Positions 2,656-47,459 of a stretch of 64,000 nucleotides of DNA are shown here, piece by piece. Source of the stretch: a virus (Duplodnaviria > Caudoviricetes); the IMG/VR virus record IMGVR_UViG_3300021431_000075, positions 1 through 64,000 of that record, one strand, 5' to 3'. How positions within the stretch are numbered: the stretch's first letter is position 1; each line of letters opens with the position of its first letter. The position numbers and the translations under genes were made by a program. The notes under the pieces were generated by a model. It saw nothing but the letters and a program-made list of their open reading frames with translations, made no database searches and was not told the origin of the DNA.

Positions 2656-3981
2656 TTAGTTTTTGATAATCTTGACTTCAACATTCGTCATACTGTCAGC
2701 CTTCGTGATAGTATACACCTCATATGTAGCATTTGCCCCTCGCTGCGTCGAAGTCTTAATGTCATTCCTTGTTTGGCTTGTCTTTGTGAATTGCCAGTCT
2801 GTATTGTAAGTGTCTGTTGCGGTATCGCTTGCAACTTTCACCGAACTTATCCTATATCCACTTGGAACATAAACCTTGAACACATCAGACGCATTCGTTC
2901 CGCTTGGCCATTTGTAATATACCGTAACACCGCTTGCAGTAACGAGCGGCGCTGCAACAGTATCTTGATAATTGATGGTCGTATCTACCCATCCGGTACT
3001 ATCCTTTGTCTCTCTGATACCGACTTTCGACCATGCAGTACTCTTGTTCGTGTACTGATGAAGCGCGTTCGAAAGAACCTTGTATGCTCCAACAAATGAA
3101 ATGTTTGCCGGCGTTGCAGCAACTGTTCCTGCATAACCCGGAACCTTTATCGCTCCAACGGAGTTCGTCGCATCCTGATTCTTGTCGAAAGAAGCAACTG
3201 CACGGACATAGAATGTTCCTTCCTGAACAAATCCGTTCTTGATAGCGGTGTAGTCTTCAGATGACATATCAACATTGATGTCGCCGGTAGTAGTTCCATA
3301 GTAGAACTGACTATTGTCCCTATTCAACTTGTTAAGAGAGAATGTATTGAGAACTTCTCCAGTTGATGCGATGTTCTTGTAAATGTCGCTTGTAAAACTC
3401 AGGTTAATATTCGCCGATGTCGGAAGTTCTGTGCCGACTTCTCTCGGTGGCGTATAGTTTTGCCATGAAATAGTTGCTTTCGGACCCGATGATGCATCTC
3501 TTGTCGGCTCGACAACCTCAAACAAGATAGCCTTGATAATATCAGAAATCGTCATGCTTTCAAGATCCGCAATCGTAGTTCTTGCAGGAAGACAACCATG
3601 CTTGACAAGAGTCTCCATCGTGTCCGCCATATCTCCGCCCTGGAAATATGTAGCGGCAGTAATCTCTGCAGATATTGCATTCTCGCTGATTTCGGTCCAG
3701 TAATCAAGATAGTTGTCAGCAGTCACAGAAAGAGTAGTATTGTCAACTCTGTACGGAGCGTCATTCTTGAGAGACAGGATTACCACGTTCCCGTCTGCAT
3801 CAAATGTAGAAACCACCATTCCCTTGTACGCGTTCTTGAAAAGAGAGCATGCAGACTGGTTGCTTACGCTGATATAAACATCAGCCACATTATCAATGAC
3901 GGTTCTCTGGTCGATTGGCGCGTGACCGTTGAGCTTCAGTGTATTGTTGATAACTTGTTTGCCGTTGTATGTGTATCCCAT
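2656..3981 (-). CDS. Virion fibre/decoration-like protein, paralog family (441 aa)
   Basis: Same N-domain and KHG/ILFE module; C-terminal Y.KWPS...FKVYVP motif shared with paralogs. Confidence 0.65.
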   Translation of the reverse strand: MGYTYNGKQVINNTLKLNGHAPIDQRTVIDNVADVYISVSNQSACSLFKNAYKGMVVSTFDADGNVVILSLKNDAPYRVDNTTLSVTADNYLDYWTEISENAISAEITAATYFQGGDMADTMETLVKHGCLPARTTIADLESMTISDIIKAILFEVVEPTRDASSGPKATISWQNYTPPREVGTELPTSANINLSFTSDIYKNIASTGEVLNTFSLNKLNRDNSQFYYGTTTGDINVDMSSEDYTAIKNGFVQEGTFYVRAVASFDKNQDATNSVGAIKVPGYAGTVAATPANISFVGAYKVLSNALHQYTNKSTAWSKVGIRETKDSTGWVDTTINYQDTVAAPLVTASGVTVYYKWPSGTNASDVFKVYVPSGYRISSVKVASDTATDTYNTDWQFTKTSQTRNDIKTSTQRGANATYEVYTITKADSMTNVEVKIIKN

Positions 3982-10176: not shown

Positions 10177-10197
10177 AGCAGTTCTCGATGAACTGCT
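10177..10197 (-). terminator. Intrinsic terminator
   Basis: agcagttc-tcgat-gaactgct hairpin with an A-run to the left (U-tract on - strand). Confidence 0.55.
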
Positions 10198-10216: not shown

Positions 10217-10621
10217 TTAATCATAGTCTCCTCTTTCGAAAAGATCAACAACTTCGTCAAAATTCTGTTTGACATATGCAAATGCTTCGTCATAATCAGT
10301 GAATCTTTTGAAATCAATCCAACCGTCCTTACCCGGCAGCAAACCGCCACGCTCTTTTGGAATGTCAAGACCAAACTCAACATCCGGAATCATGTAAATC
10401 TCTTCAATCGGTGCCAAAAGGTTCTTTTCTTTCATGATAAGGTAGCCAACCTCTCTGCCATTATAAACAATAGTCTGTCTATGTCGTCCTCTACCCAAAT
10501 CTTGCGGCTCTATATATTCGAATTCATCAACTGAATCATTCTCATTAAGACGCATTTTCACGACTCTGGCTACATCTTTCATAATGCTCTCGTAGAGTTT
10601 TCTTTTACTATTTCTATTCAT
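10217..10621 (-). CDS. Hypothetical protein with 27-aa YESIMKDVA...LNE leader
   Basis: Start moved to ATG 10621, downstream of the promoter motif; leader is 19/27 identical to that of 46085..46846. Confidence 0.75.
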   Translation of the reverse strand: MNRNSKRKLYESIMKDVARVVKMRLNENDSVDEFEYIEPQDLGRGRHRQTIVYNGREVGYLIMKEKNLLAPIEEIYMIPDVEFGLDIPKERGGLLPGKDGWIDFKRFTDYDEAFAYVKQNFDEVVDLFERGDYD

Positions 10622-10638
10622 TAAAAATAAACATCTTT

Positions 10639-10654
10639 TTATAAGGTATTTATT
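10639..10654 (-). promoter_or_regulatory. Phage promoter, extended form (AATAAATACCTTATAA)
   Basis: One mismatch to the conserved extended motif, 18 nt before ATG. Confidence 0.7.
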
Positions 10655-10677
10655 TTTGCACATCTTTAAAAAATTAG

Positions 10678-10941: not shown

Positions 10942-11181
10942 ATGAAAAATAAAAACATGATTCTGGAAGGATTCAGTTCAATTCTGGAAGGATTCAGTTC
11001 AATTCTGGAAGGATTCTTCTCAATCTTAAACATCAGCGGCAGCAACGCATCTAAGAAAATTCAAAGAAAAAAGTCCAATCTCACTGATATAGAACAAGAC
11101 TGGCAACAAATTGAACAAGACTGGCAACAAGTCGGAACGGATTTCCGAGATGCGCTGAACAATTTCAAAAAGAATAATTAA
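10942..11181 (+). CDS. Small hypothetical protein with internal tandem repeats
   Basis: ILEGFSS x3 and IEQDWQQ x2; flanked by host-type promoter and terminator. Confidence 0.7.
   Translation: MKNKNMILEGFSSILEGFSSILEGFFSILNISGSNASKKIQRKKSNLTDIEQDWQQIEQDWQQVGTDFRDALNNFKKNN
10960..11022 (+). repeat. 21-bp tandem repeat x3
   Basis: attctggaaggattcagttca twice exactly, third copy with 2 changes. Confidence 0.95.
11089..11130 (+). repeat. 21-bp tandem repeat x2
   Basis: at(a/t)gaacaagactggcaacaa. Confidence 0.95.
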
Positions 11182-11445: not shown

Positions 11446-13080
11446 TCAAATCATTGAAACAATATTTCCTTCCGAATCAACACATACACCGTCTTTTGAA
11501 ATCAGCAAATCGTCAAACTGCTCTATCCAATTCTTATCAACAAATTTCGGAAACGCGAGATTGCCTTTCCGGTTTATATAATTTATTTCATGACGATAAT
11601 TTTCCACTTTTGCAAAACCGTCCTTAAAATCTTCTGCAGCATGAAACCACTTGTCAGATATATAATGTCCATTCACATCAATAAAGTTATAGTCAGTTCC
11701 ATGATAAACACGAAAGAAACCGTCAGAATAGTTCTTGATTTCTGGATTAATCCATTTTGAAAATATTAAGTTTCCTTTCTTGTCAATCACGTTGTATTTG
11801 TGATTTTTCATGACAACAGCATAGCCGTTCACAAATGGAAAACATTTATCACAATTATTCTCTAAAAGAAAATTTCCACTTGTGTCAATATAGTTCGCAT
11901 CAACTACTGAAGGTTCAACAACTGCAAAACCATCATGGAATTGGTAAGCCTTAAAGAAATGACGATCAGGGCACAAAACATTTCCATTCGTGTCGATATA
12001 GTTCCATCCGTAATCATCATCTTCAAGACTGCCATTAAAGACCGGCGCATATCCTTCGGAAAAATCTTCCACTTCTGTATAATGAAGCTTCTTCCCTCTT
12101 TTATTCTTCAGCAGCTCGCCTTTCGTATTTATGAAAAAAGACTCGTATTTATGTACAACTGCAAGACCATTGCTGAAGTCCCTGCATCCATCAAACCAAA
12201 CCGGAGAGATAGTAGAACCATTTTTGTTTATGAAATTATATTTGATATCCTTGCCATTAATTTTTGATTCGACAACAGCAAAACCTTCATGAAAATCACA
12301 AACATCTTCATACCATGTAGTTGAAACCAAGTCTCCGGTTTCCTTGTCTATAAAATTCCATTTATCATTGCCATCTTTCACATCAACATTCACTCTTGCA
12401 AACCCATCATGGAAATCATAGCAATCCCTGAACCATCCATCTAAAAGAAGATTTCCGTCATAATCAACAAGATTGTAAGTGCCGTCGAAACACAATCTAT
12501 AATTAATGTTATTATTTCTGGTATTACATCTGATGCACGATCTACAAAAACTCTTCAATATCTCGCTCTCACTCTTATCCGGGAAATATATATGAAAGAA
12601 CCAATAAAATGATTCTTCGTCATTGATTTCTATCGATGGATGTTCTTTTATTTCAAATCTACCAAAATTTGTACTAAACTTAAACTCTCCCGGCTTGTCT
12701 TTGATTTTGTCATTAGCAAACTTTAGTCCAATAACATATCCAGAAAACAAAACCGCAATACGATTGATAAGAATGCAAAAATCACCAAGAGACATGTTCT
12801 CTGAATGAAATGATATAACTATTAGACAACTTTTATTACCAGTTAAATCTAACAGACAAACCAGCGGTTCTTTGTATCTCTCTATGAAATGGCTTGACAA
12901 CAACACTTTGTTGACATAACTCTCTATTGTCTGTTTTCCATCATCTCCTCCAAACGAAGTCTTGCAGTCAAACACCAGCATGACATTACAACTATCATCA
13001 CTGGCATCATCCTTAACATCTTCAACATCAACAGCATCGAGAAGACTCTCATTCAACATTTTTGATTTATGTTGCATCAT
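11446..13080 (-). CDS. WG/KWG beta-repeat protein with N-terminal domain
   Basis: Repeated F(H/S)(D/E)G(F/Y)A.V...(W/Y)N(F/Y)ID..G; leader MLNESLLDAVDVEDV; start moved to ATG 13080. Confidence 0.85.
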   Translation of the reverse strand: MMQHKSKMLNESLLDAVDVEDVKDDASDDSCNVMLVFDCKTSFGGDDGKQTIESYVNKVLLSSHFIERYKEPLVCLLDLTGNKSCLIVISFHSENMSLGDFCILINRIAVLFSGYVIGLKFANDKIKDKPGEFKFSTNFGRFEIKEHPSIEINDEESFYWFFHIYFPDKSESEILKSFCRSCIRCNTRNNNINYRLCFDGTYNLVDYDGNLLLDGWFRDCYDFHDGFARVNVDVKDGNDKWNFIDKETGDLVSTTWYEDVCDFHEGFAVVESKINGKDIKYNFINKNGSTISPVWFDGCRDFSNGLAVVHKYESFFINTKGELLKNKRGKKLHYTEVEDFSEGYAPVFNGSLEDDDYGWNYIDTNGNVLCPDRHFFKAYQFHDGFAVVEPSVVDANYIDTSGNFLLENNCDKCFPFVNGYAVVMKNHKYNVIDKKGNLIFSKWINPEIKNYSDGFFRVYHGTDYNFIDVNGHYISDKWFHAAEDFKDGFAKVENYRHEINYINRKGNLAFPKFVDKNWIEQFDDLLISKDGVCVDSEGNIVSMI

Positions 13081-29976: not shown

Positions 29977-31944
29977 TTAGAGACCTGCAGGGTCCACTAC
30001 AAACGTAACATACTGTGTTTCAGGGAAGTAACCTGCATCGACCAGTGCATATCTTGATTTAACCATTAACTTCGGAGCCATAGTTGCCTCTGCTATTGTA
30101 CGGTAGGTTTCTGCGAGTACATAAGGCATAAAATGACAACCAGGTTCATCCTTGCCACCCTTGCGACCTACGAGTACACGAGTATCCTGAGCGTTCATCA
30201 ATGGGTCAACATAAATTGTCATACCGCACATTGTGCCGATTGGATAAAGAGAACCACCGTTCTGGCTGATGTTGTTAGCCAATGGGCTAAACTGATACTG
30301 TGCATTAGTCTGCAAGAGAGTTGCGATAGTGATGTTAGTTACTGCGAATGTAGCAGCACCATAACGACCGCGCTGGAGAATCCAGTTAGAAGCAGCCAAG
30401 AAGTTGCTCTGAATTCTCTTGATGAGAGTGTCACGGTTCTCGAAGCTTGCACCAGCAGGCAAGAACAATGGCTTGAATGGAAGTGCAACGTTCACCTGAT
30501 TAGCATACTCAACACCGTCTTCTGTAGTCATGCTGTTCTGAGGAATAGCAAATGCAGGAGTCATACGGAGAGGACTGCCCGGAGTATAAGAAGGGTCGAG
30601 AGAAATGTTAAGGTTAGCAGTTGGACCTTCAACTTCTACCATCTTGTAGTGGTTCTTCCAACCGAGAGCAAAGAGGCGGCTTGTGATGTGACGGTTGATA
30701 GTCTGAGAGAGATCATTAACAGCTGCGTTCTCAACCATCTTCACAACATCGATACCCCACTGCTTCTGGAGGTCAGTAACCTGCTCCTGAGTAACAGCGC
30801 AACCAACTTCGATAGTACCAACGCTCACGTTCTTAGTGAACAACTTGAGGCTGATCTGACGTGCAGGAGTCTGCTCGCCGACGCCGCGGCTCATTGGCTC
30901 GTAGAGAGTAGTACCGTCCTGATATGTGCCGTACCATGCATCGCGGTCATGTTCGCCAGCACCTGCGAAGCCCTGAATCTGGTCTTCAAGCATGGAGATG
31001 AGGCGTGGAGCCACGAGAGTAACTTCCTTGGTTTCCTCTTCTGTTGCACCAACTGGAGTGTAAACAGTAGTGAAAGTGAGCTGACCCTGTGCGAAGTAAG
31101 CACCGAGAGACTGTGTACCAGCGATAACCTTGAACATTGGGTCGCCGTCGATACGAGACCAGCCGATGAACTCAACGATAAGGTCGCCATCCTCGCCGAA
31201 GTGGTTGTGGTTGATAGAAGTATCAACTGCCTGACCAGCAGCAGCAACGAAAGTAGCGCCAGCAGGAACTGCGGTAGCACCCTTCAGGCTACGCTTGATA
31301 GCAGCAGGAGAAAGAGTGACAGTCTCGCCAGTGGAAGCATCCTCGAGTTCAGCAGGAGCGATAGAAGCCTTGAATGCATGAGGCAAACCATAAACTTCGT
31401 AAGCAGCGTTAGTCTGGCTGTTAGCACGAGGGTTAGCATTCTGTGGAGAATAAGCTGGAGAGTCGCCATAAGGAGCCTTGCTACCAGTGTAAACATAGTC
31501 CATATAAGGAAGAACGCCTGTAGGACCAGAGAGCGGAGTCGTGTTCACGAGCTCGAAGCCGATGGTCTTAGCGGCAACCTTGAGAGCGATAGGGAGCAGA
31601 GTGTTCCACTTGTCGCCGGAACCAAGGTTAGTTGGGTCAGCCTGCTGTGCGCCGGTCATGGTAACAGGAGCAGTGCGAGGGTCGCCCACGCCAGTGGTGT
31701 TGTAAAGGGTGTTGTATGGCTGATAAGTGCCACCCATTGCAGAATAAGCGTTAGCGCCATTCTGGAATGCATCCTCGTTCAGCTTTGCAGTGTTGTGTGC
31801 AAGTGCAGCCATCCACTCAAGCTTCTCAGGATCGTTTACGCCAGTGATCTTCTTAATAGTTGGAGTCCAAGCCTCGGTAATCGCATGGTTGGTACCATTG
31901 ATTGCCTTGTAAGAAGCGGCCAATTTATTAGTTTTGATCTTCAT
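29977..31944 (-). CDS. gp23: Major capsid protein, T4 gp23-like (655 aa)
   Basis: TPLSGPTG..., TQEQVTDLQKQWGID, INRHI, IYVDP...VLVGRKG, FMPY, APKLMVKSRYAL; strong high-expression codon bias; start at ATG 31944 after an A-rich leader; LNE57 maturation-like site. Confidence 0.92.
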   Translation of the reverse strand: MKIKTNKLAASYKAINGTNHAITEAWTPTIKKITGVNDPEKLEWMAALAHNTAKLNEDAFQNGANAYSAMGGTYQPYNTLYNTTGVGDPRTAPVTMTGAQQADPTNLGSGDKWNTLLPIALKVAAKTIGFELVNTTPLSGPTGVLPYMDYVYTGSKAPYGDSPAYSPQNANPRANSQTNAAYEVYGLPHAFKASIAPAELEDASTGETVTLSPAAIKRSLKGATAVPAGATFVAAAGQAVDTSINHNHFGEDGDLIVEFIGWSRIDGDPMFKVIAGTQSLGAYFAQGQLTFTTVYTPVGATEEETKEVTLVAPRLISMLEDQIQGFAGAGEHDRDAWYGTYQDGTTLYEPMSRGVGEQTPARQISLKLFTKNVSVGTIEVGCAVTQEQVTDLQKQWGIDVVKMVENAAVNDLSQTINRHITSRLFALGWKNHYKMVEVEGPTANLNISLDPSYTPGSPLRMTPAFAIPQNSMTTEDGVEYANQVNVALPFKPLFLPAGASFENRDTLIKRIQSNFLAASNWILQRGRYGAATFAVTNITIATLLQTNAQYQFSPLANNISQNGGSLYPIGTMCGMTIYVDPLMNAQDTRVLVGRKGGKDEPGCHFMPYVLAETYRTIAEATMAPKLMVKSRYALVDAGYFPETQYVTFVVDPAGL

Positions 31945-45973: not shown

Positions 45974-46084
45974 GTTAAATGATGTTAAAAACTTTTGATA
46001 TTTAAATAATTGTTTTTATCTTTGTTACAAAAACATATTTGTATATAATTGATAAATAATTAAATGATTTTTTGAAAAAAATAT

Positions 46085-46846
46085 ATGATAAGACAAAATA
46101 ATAGAGCTCTTTATGAGAGCATTATGAAAGACGTTGCGAAAGTTATAAAGAGAAGACTCAATGAAGGTCTTTATGACTACGTTACAACAAGTTCATATGA
46201 AGATGTTAATTCCATGCTTTCTAAAGAACGATTGAATAATCTTGAAATACATGAATACCATGAGGGTTTTGCTGTTATTGTAGATAGAGAGAATGATTGT
46301 ATGAATTACATAGATGAAGATGAAAATCTTCTTTCTGATATGTGGTTTGACGAATGTTCTTATTTTAGCGATGGATGCGGAAAAGTAATAAAAGACGACA
46401 AGATTAATTTTATAGACAAGACCGGTAGAATGCTTTTTCCTGAATGGGTTAAAATGAGTGTAGTGGATGTTTATAACTTTCATGAAGGATTTGCTGTTGT
46501 TAAAGAAAGTAAAGGCCAGTACAGATTTAATTATATTGACAAGAATGGAAGATTGCTTTCTAATCAATGGTATTTTGATGCTGGTTCATTCCATAACGGT
46601 TTTGCTAAAGTTAGTATCGGTTTAAACAGTTGGAATTATATAGACAAGAAAGGAAGATTGTTGTCAAAAGAATGGTTTGATTATTGTTGGAATTTTGGCG
46701 ATTCTGTAGATAAGAATCATGCTATTGTGTCAAAAATTGTTGATGAAAAAACATTCAAGAAAAAACGTTTTATGATAGACAAGAAAGGTAGATTGACAAA
46801 GTTTGATCGTTCAAAACAAATAGACAAACCTGTTGAATTGTGGTAA
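46085..46846 (+). CDS. Short WG/KWG repeat protein with YESIMKDVA...LNE leader
   Basis: WG repeats; both TATCTTTG (46017) and GATAAATA (46051) upstream. Confidence 0.85.
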   Translation: MIRQNNRALYESIMKDVAKVIKRRLNEGLYDYVTTSSYEDVNSMLSKERLNNLEIHEYHEGFAVIVDRENDCMNYIDEDENLLSDMWFDECSYFSDGCGKVIKDDKINFIDKTGRMLFPEWVKMSVVDVYNFHEGFAVVKESKGQYRFNYIDKNGRLLSNQWYFDAGSFHNGFAKVSIGLNSWNYIDKKGRLLSKEWFDYCWNFGDSVDKNHAIVSKIVDEKTFKKKRFMIDKKGRLTKFDRSKQIDKPVELW

Positions 46847-46854
46847 TAGAATAA

Positions 46855-46889
46855 AAAAACCCAAGAAATCAATGATTTCCTGGGTTTTT
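46855..46889. terminator. Bidirectional intrinsic terminator
   Basis: aaaaaccca.gaaatc...gatttc.tgggttttt. Confidence 0.8.
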
Positions 46890-46907
46890 CTTTTATAGTC
46901 TAACTAA

Positions 46908-47459
46908 TTAGATGATAAACTCGTCCGGAATCTCCGAACCGCCTTCGTTGGCAGCCTTCTCATCATTGTCATAATCTTCGTCATCGATGGTGAAGTCTTC
47001 TGAATCGCTTTCCTTGCTGTCAGATTCCTTATCATTGCCACTCTCTTCTTCTGCATCTTCGGAATCAATATCCTCAAGACTCAGCATGTCATCATCGCCG
47101 CCTTCCAAATCTTCCTCGCCTTCATTAGACTCATCATCTTCGGAATCTTTCAAACCGAGAACAACTTCGATATCTGCACCCGGAACATAGTTCTTAAGGA
47201 AGTTCTCAACCAGTCCGCTAAGTTCAATGCAGTCCTCAATCTTCACGTTGTCAAGCATCTTTGCAATCTTCATCGCAATCTTCAAAGAGTCGATTCTAAT
47301 AGTCTCCTCATCGACTTCAGACTCGACTTCCGAACCGCTTTCGTCACCCTCGCTTACATTATCGTCCTCAACGAGAAACTCATCATCGTCAAAAGAATCC
47401 GATTCCTTGATGTACCTGTTCACTATACTGTTTCTATTATTAAACTTATTGTATTTCAT
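46908..47459 (-). CDS. Highly acidic protein with basic N-terminal leader
   Basis: Basic first 18 aa ending IKE, then D/E-rich body. Confidence 0.75.
   Translation of the reverse strand: MKYNKFNNRNSIVNRYIKESDSFDDDEFLVEDDNVSEGDESGSEVESEVDEETIRIDSLKIAMKIAKMLDNVKIEDCIELSGLVENFLKNYVPGADIEVVLGLKDSEDDESNEGEEDLEGGDDDMLSLEDIDSEDAEEESGNDKESDSKESDSEDFTIDDEDYDNDEKAANEGGSEIPDEFII

Follow-up and report, generated by a model that had tools for sequence, protein, structure and literature searches.

A portable 27-residue basic leader on unrelated late genes of a Lak-type megaphage, a candidate capsid-targeting sequence

Two genes of the window (the whole stretch of 64,000 nucleotides analysed, positions 1 to 64,000 of the IMG/VR record IMGVR_UViG_3300021431_000075) begin with similar peptides of exactly 27 residues and continue into proteins that do not resemble each other, which raises the question of what such a peptide does there and whether it stays on the mature proteins. 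The peptides are encoded at 10541-10621 (minus strand) and 46085-46165 (plus strand), and translation confirmed the earlier note in that both genes start with them and that 19 of the 27 residues are identical. The claim that the DNA differences in the core are mostly synonymous also held, as in the ten-residue core 5 of 5 differences are silent, and for codons 2-27 of the pair pS was 0.84 and pN 0.20. The bodies were rightly described as unlike each other, one being acidic (pI 4.4) and the other belonging to the WG_beta_rep family (PF14903), and a BLASTP comparison of the 10621 body with the 46085 body gave no similarity, so that homology of the downstream domains was not found for this pair. 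The features of the two genes are as follows.

10647-10653, minus strand: late-promoter motif (ATAAATA) preceding the ATG of the 10621 gene by 26 nt
10541-10621, minus strand: leader of the 10621 gene, 27 codons, closing with Leu-Asn-Glu
10220-10540, minus strand: body of the 10621 gene, 107 residues, acidic alpha/beta domain
10177-10197, minus strand: terminator-like hairpin just past the stop codon of the 10621 gene, closing a one-gene late transcription unit
46052-46058, plus strand: late-promoter motif (ATAAATA) preceding the ATG of the 46085 gene by 27 nt
46085-46165, plus strand: leader of the 46085 gene, 27 codons, closing with Leu-Asn-Glu
46166-46213, plus strand: acidic extension of 16 residues directly 3' of the 46085 leader, common to the genes starting at 301885 and 562849
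46214-46846, plus strand: WG beta-repeat body and stop codon of the 46085 gene
46853-46891, no strand assigned: hairpin with an 18-bp stem between the convergent genes 46085 (+) and 46908-47459 (-)

The leader is basic, as had been proposed, with a charge of +4 or +5, and its first half includes an invariant Leu-Tyr-Glu-Ser at residues 9-12. It had also been called amphipathic, and here the hydrophobic moment of 0.42-0.50 was matched by 6-13% of shuffled peptides and is not significant. In an AlphaFold2 model of the 10621 protein, the leader forms one helix (residues 3-27) of low confidence (pLDDT 46-60) which is not packed on the body; confidence is lowest at residues 22-30, across the proposed cut. 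A Sec, Tat or lipoprotein signal peptide should have a basic N-region followed by a hydrophobic core at least some 10 residues long; the leader lacks such a core, carrying charged residues every 2-4 positions throughout, and was rejected as a signal of this kind. Also, Pfam DUF5759 (PF19063) was rejected, its best score of 9-15 bits falling short of the curated cut-off (25 bits), and the leader is not covered by any Pfam family. The sequence data thus support a portable basic peptide, predicted to be helical, on unrelated bodies.

In the case of the 10621 gene, the ATG at 10621 is taken as the right start because the promoter motif lies downstream of an earlier in-frame ATG at 10663. The body is modelled as a compact alpha/beta domain (pLDDT 83-97, AlphaFold2) and matched no Pfam or PHROG family; as a Foldseek search of the model against the PDB gave no match at E <= 0.001, it remains without an assigned fold. 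When 14 homologues of the 10621 protein were aligned, one had the same canonical leader, nine had another helical leader of similar design, in which a hydrophobic-x-Glu motif also occurs twice, three had only a leader of 9-10 residues ending with hydrophobic-x-Glu and a fourth had almost none. The body always starts at the same aligned residue, directly past the last Glu, and removing from the long form of the leader precisely what lies between its two hydrophobic-x-Glu motifs gives the short form. One orthologue with a short leader is preceded by a host-type TAnnTTTG promoter instead of the late motif and may not come from a megaphage, so the body does not need the leader. The variant helical leader is absent from the 673-kb genome to which the window belongs, and on a rumen metagenome scaffold it is found on two adjacent unrelated genes (2531-2914 and 3001-3396 of the piece examined), with two hydrophobic-x-Glu motifs. 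This pattern suggests a joint change of leader and receptor from one lineage to another. The 10621 gene is separated by 800 bp from a gene at 11446-13080, which carries the acidic leader described below, and in this gap lie a perfect 21-bp tandem repeat of 2.7 copies (window positions 10960-11016) and, near it, a 12-bp repeat (11093-11131).

The body of the 46085 gene matched PF14903 with 38.5 bits against a cut-off of 25.6 (E = 1.2e-9), and paralogues of this WG body start at 301885, 303076 and 660738. The earlier note had the similarity stop at Leu-Asn-Glu, which is correct for the window pair but not for the 46085 protein, which shares 16 further residues with the proteins of the genes starting at 301885 and 562849. 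This acidic stretch thus occurs in three proteins from two body families and resembles the acidic part of the main leader of the genome, as though one tag could be stacked on the other. When residues 1-40 of the 46085 protein were used as the query of a word-indexed homologue search, nothing other than that protein was retrieved. The hairpin downstream of the gene is a probable two-way terminator.

The genome from which the window was taken is complete (673,114 bp, with terminal repeats), and its major capsid protein is 72% identical to its counterpart in Prevotella phage Lak-B1. By a crude gene call, the genome reads cleanly in the standard code and is 90% coding. The search of this genome and other phages that had been proposed was carried out, and an HMM search of all open frames detected the leader in 16 full genes and, at 324080 and 298777, in 2 remnants, in all cases N-terminally and with E values from 1e-5 to 1e-20, so that the likeness is far greater than chance would give. 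The 16 genes carry at least 10 unrelated kinds of body, all small (104-317 residues), among them four WG-repeat proteins, one pair of paralogues, several orphans and one weak GNAT-like match; three leader proteins are related to each other, one of them with weak, below-cut-off matches to HExxH metallopeptidase families. A 553-kb relative from IMG/VR, TAG-recoded and AT-rich, with a capsid protein 73% identical, has about 9 leader copies ending with Leu/Ile-Asn-Glu; its capsid gene (496101-498086) contains an in-frame TAG, as expected for recoded Lak phages.

Among 50,697 deposited phage genomes the leader was found only in 15 Prevotella Lak records (GenBank), in 5-8 places each, and among 185,579 species genomes it was found on one contig, CADCHG010000036.1, from a rumen Prevotellaceae MAG. 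There, a leader gene of 187 residues lies beside a transposase-like ORF and an AraC-type-regulator-like ORF (both judged by eye from translations), and it could be a mis-binned piece of phage, part of a chimeric contig or a transferred gene. An exhaustive profile search of 1.84 billion cluster representatives gave 988 matches at E <= 0.001, nearly all of them from residue 1, and the 121 bodies of at least 50 residues among the 150 best representatives fell into 94 groups without a BLAST link. The public representative P0028 has two tandem leader copies inside one protein of 148 residues, and in P0006 a second full leader lies about 100 residues in, which may be a real internal copy or a fusion of two genes by the gene caller. 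At the protein level, representatives with a leader in mid-protein are read as gene-call fusions since a Met stands at the expected position.

For the 150 best representatives, the information content is 4.0-4.3 bits at Leu9, Tyr10, Glu11, Ser12, Ile13, Met14, Lys22, Leu25, Asn26 and Glu27; after Glu27, which has 4.26 bits, it drops to 1.35 bits one residue on and is below 0.8 bits from there. In the sequence pattern of the closing tripeptide, the first position is Leu in 142 and Ile in 7 of these representatives, the second is Asn in 144 and the third is Glu in 149. Across 13 copies in the 673-kb genome, pS was 0.75, which is saturated, and pN 0.21; what is conserved under selection is therefore the peptide itself and not its DNA or mRNA. 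In eight copies the 5' UTR is almost the same, yet where these copies agree in a residue, its codon differs in 37% of cases. In the copies starting at 301885 and 303076 the likeness reaches about 60 nt beyond this in the upstream direction, as a tandem duplication would leave it, and together with the two remnants this duplicate shows a turnover of leader copies. The moving unit is the late promoter with the 5' UTR and the leader.

The ATAAATA motif is 3-fold over-represented in the window (37 found versus 12 expected) and occurs 262 times in the genome, half of these occurrences lying at most 80 nt upstream of genes, with a peak 25-40 nt from the starts. It precedes the portal gene, the gene for a putative protease-scaffold protein and, at 455 nt, the capsid gene, and it stands before every leader gene at the spacing seen before the portal and protease-scaffold genes. 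The major capsid protein (gene 29977-31944) belongs to the Pfam Gp23 family (PF07068, 2e-31), the portal matches T4 gp20 by phmmer, and a PDB sequence search with the capsid protein gave no match. The capsid protein contains a tripeptide identical to that which closes the leader:

31774-31782, minus strand: Leu-Asn-Glu of the gp23-type major capsid protein, residues 55-57, a candidate maturation cut that closes an N-terminal piece of 57 residues

The 553-kb relative has an identical site with identical flanks, and T4 gp23 is cut after Leu-Thr-Glu at residue 65 (PMC5694885). Outside the window, phrog_207, the PHROG containing T4 gp21, matched a protein of 612 residues (624491-626329, minus strand; 2e-22) in which a protease domain, taking up about the first 190 residues, is followed by a tail of about 420 residues, first very acidic and then helical. 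Six hydrophobic-Asn-Glu sites were found in this protein, compared with 0.92 expected (P = 4e-4), and three of them are conserved in the 553-kb relative; judged by its sequence, the protein looks like a self-cutting protease-scaffold fusion. Over the proteome, the hydrophobic-Asn-Glu tripeptide is 2.9-fold enriched in the first 40 residues. In searches of the genome, Pfam Peptidase_S77 gave no match even at E <= 10, phrog_237 (the T4 scaffold family) gave none and phmmer with T4 gp21, gp22 and gp23 gave none either, only the portal being found through gp20. A second peptidase gene outside the window (658475-659134, plus strand), of the papain-family/C39-like cysteine type (PF00112, 3.7e-7; phrog_16701), directly follows the portal gene, where T4 has its core and protease genes, and has a late motif upstream. 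Four leader genes at 660035-662354 follow it.

The earlier note had also spoken of a second address class, which overstates the independence of the leader. The main leader of the genome, an acidic one, consists of a short N-terminus, Leu-Asn-Glu-Ser and an acidic run. Its class was defined by the acidic tail alone, and a profile was built from the nine residues preceding the tail. Equally far from the Met, residues 9-17 of the 27-residue leader scored 13.9 bits against this profile, a value that 0.7% of the other proteins attain. The two leaders have in common a core of Leu-x-Glu-Ser-(Ile/Leu)-(Leu/Met)-x-x-Val at the same distance from the Met and use the same late promoter, and their genes are often neighbours, 7 of the 16 leader genes lying less than 2 kb from an acidic-leader gene. 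The 27-residue leader differs in that it runs on past the core as a basic helix with a second Leu-Asn-Glu and not as an acidic tail; the canonical site stands after its conserved block, while in the acidic leader it stands before it. Given the match of its first half to the acidic-leader core, the 27-residue leader is not a fully separate address, and the core match, the neighbouring genes and the acidic stretch after Leu-Asn-Glu in three proteins make the proposed second class a relative of the acidic leader.

The sequences support the view that the end of the leader coincides with the apparent cleavage motif of the gp21-family head protease of the phage. Because it ends exactly at a motif which a T4-like head protease appears to cut, the leader is most likely a removable tag for loading into the head. 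Read in this way, it would be a long, helical and basic version of the T4 capsid-targeting sequence, removed after Leu-Asn-Glu, and we give this reading a little better than an even chance of being right. What counts for capsid targeting is the distribution of the leader, its sharp boundary, the selection on the peptide, the link to the late promoter, the presence of a T4-type capsid and protease, the recurrence of the tripeptide, the constant start of the orthologous 10621 bodies behind leaders of different kinds and the precedent of the T4 leaders. What counts against it is the length of 27 residues compared with 10-20 in T4, a sequence unlike that of T4 and the detection of the protease by the broader PHROG profile only and not by Pfam Peptidase_S77 or T4 gp21, as well as the non-significant amphipathicity, the short-leader orthologue behind a host-type promoter and the papain-like peptidase as a possible other enzyme. 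In this mechanism, the leader proteins would be made late, together with the head proteins, and the basic helix would dock the cargo on the assembling prohead core, most plausibly on the long acidic and coiled part of the protease-scaffold protein. The gp21-family prohead protease would then cut after the closing hydrophobic-Asn-Glu, and the mature cargo would be freed inside the head, to be ejected together with the DNA into a Prevotella-type host. The invariant Leu-Tyr-Glu-Ser at residues 9-12 is a possible second candidate site.

Alternatively, the helix might never be cut and be retained in the mature proteins as a part for docking or oligomerisation that binds a virion component, DNA or a target in the host. 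The near-invariance of residues 9-27, which includes residues far from the supposed cut, would fit a binding interface, a peptide of this charge could bind nucleic acid or acidic partners, and in the proteomics of SPN3US most head proteins of this giant phage were unprocessed (PMC10052503). However, the last residues of the conserved block are precisely the tripeptide found again in the protease-scaffold and capsid proteins, orthologues of one body make do with a leader of 9-10 residues and no helix, and in the model the helix is detached from the body by a linker of low confidence, so that we regard retention as unlikely.

Somewhat less probable still is that the leader is an address for another destination or enzyme, such as tail or portal loading or the papain-like peptidase, and not for the gp21-type prohead pathway. 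The papain-like gene, with the same late motif and its place between the portal and four leader genes, could encode the relevant enzyme instead, and two classes of leader with opposite charge could mean two destinations. Against this, the closing tripeptide matches the sites of the gp21-family and capsid proteins, as expected of a glutamate-specific prohead protease, the first half of the leader matches the acidic-leader core, and the papain-like enzyme has no known specificity. That the N-terminus is a mere by-product of copying of a promoter and 5' cassette by recombination, or of a constraint on the mRNA, with a peptide devoid of any role, would account for the shared 5' UTRs, the extended upstream likeness of two copies and the turnover seen in the remnants, but it is very improbable given that the peptide is kept while synonymous sites are saturated, with differing codons even among the copies sharing a UTR, and is kept also in the TAG-recoded, AT-rich relative and in about 1,000 protein clusters.

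Taking head loading as the preferred reading, a wider and more doubtful proposal can be made, namely that Lak-type megaphages run a two-tier sorting code in which acidic and basic helical leaders on a common core, read by the prohead core and a Glu-specific protease, would direct into the capsid, as an arsenal of ejected effectors, about 70 of the proteins encoded by each genome and, over the whole clade, about 1,000 protein families, the tags possibly setting different positions, copy numbers or orders of release. Lak megaphages, which rank with the largest phages known, are common in the guts of humans and animals, and no role has been assigned to most of their genes. We know of no Lak megaphage that has been cultivated. 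If head loading is true, a simple sequence search would list the virion-borne proteins that enter the Prevotella host first, and the list obtained here takes in metallopeptidase-like, acetyltransferase-like and repeat binding proteins. Foreign proteins might then be packaged with the leader as a candidate tag, and the T4 capsid-targeting principle would be extended to a longer helical signal at a scale not described for any phage. If the two-tier code is true as well, the injected proteome of these phages could be listed from sequence only and a ready-made packaging tag would be at hand.

A search of the literature returned no paper linking capsid targeting to Lak phages or megaphages and no virion proteome of any Lak-type phage. 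The nearest known system is that of T4, in which proteins enter the prohead by means of leaders that end with Leu/Ile-x-Glu and are taken off by gp21, the capsid-targeting sequence being borne by IPI, IPII, IPIII and Alt (summarised in PMC5694885, citing Mullaney and Black, 1996). Like the T4 sequence as summarised there, the 27-residue leader is N-terminal, stands on unrelated proteins, closes with Leu/Ile-x-Glu and is expressed with the head genes of a phage having a gp23-type capsid and a gp21-family protease; also, the same site motif is found in the capsid propeptide and the core/scaffold protein of the 673-kb phage. Set against that summary, it differs in having 27 residues and not 10-20 (9-10 in some orthologues), in being a long basic predicted helix without likeness to the T4 sequence, in the nearly fixed Asn before the Glu and in the second, invariant Leu-Tyr-Glu-Ser inside the leader. 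The T4 sequence is described there for four proteins, whereas the 27-residue leader, known here from sequence, heads 16 genes of the 673-kb genome and is found in about 1,000 protein clusters.

In phiKZ-like giant phages, a gp21-related protease (SPN3US gp245, phiKZ gp175) cuts after x-x-Glu, the N-terminal propeptides of head and ejection proteins are thought to target them into the prohead and may have several sites each, and the paralogues gp53 and gp54 have an identical N-terminus of 15 residues (PMC5694885, PMC10052503). The likeness lies in a giant phage with a gp21-related protease and in N-terminal peptides with more than one candidate site, whereas the phiKZ-like propeptides are mostly of 80-160 residues, are protein-specific and have Ala or Ser, not a hydrophobic residue, two positions before the Glu, and none of them is a short leader common to many unrelated proteins. 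With the cargo-loading peptides of encapsulins the leader has in common that a short portable peptide is found on unrelated cargo for a shell of the HK97 fold. Those peptides are usually C-terminal, rich in Gly and Pro and uncleaved, and they bind the shell directly. The principle is thus known from T4, and what is new is the length of the leader, its basic helical nature, the double motif, the near-invariance and the scale on which it is used.
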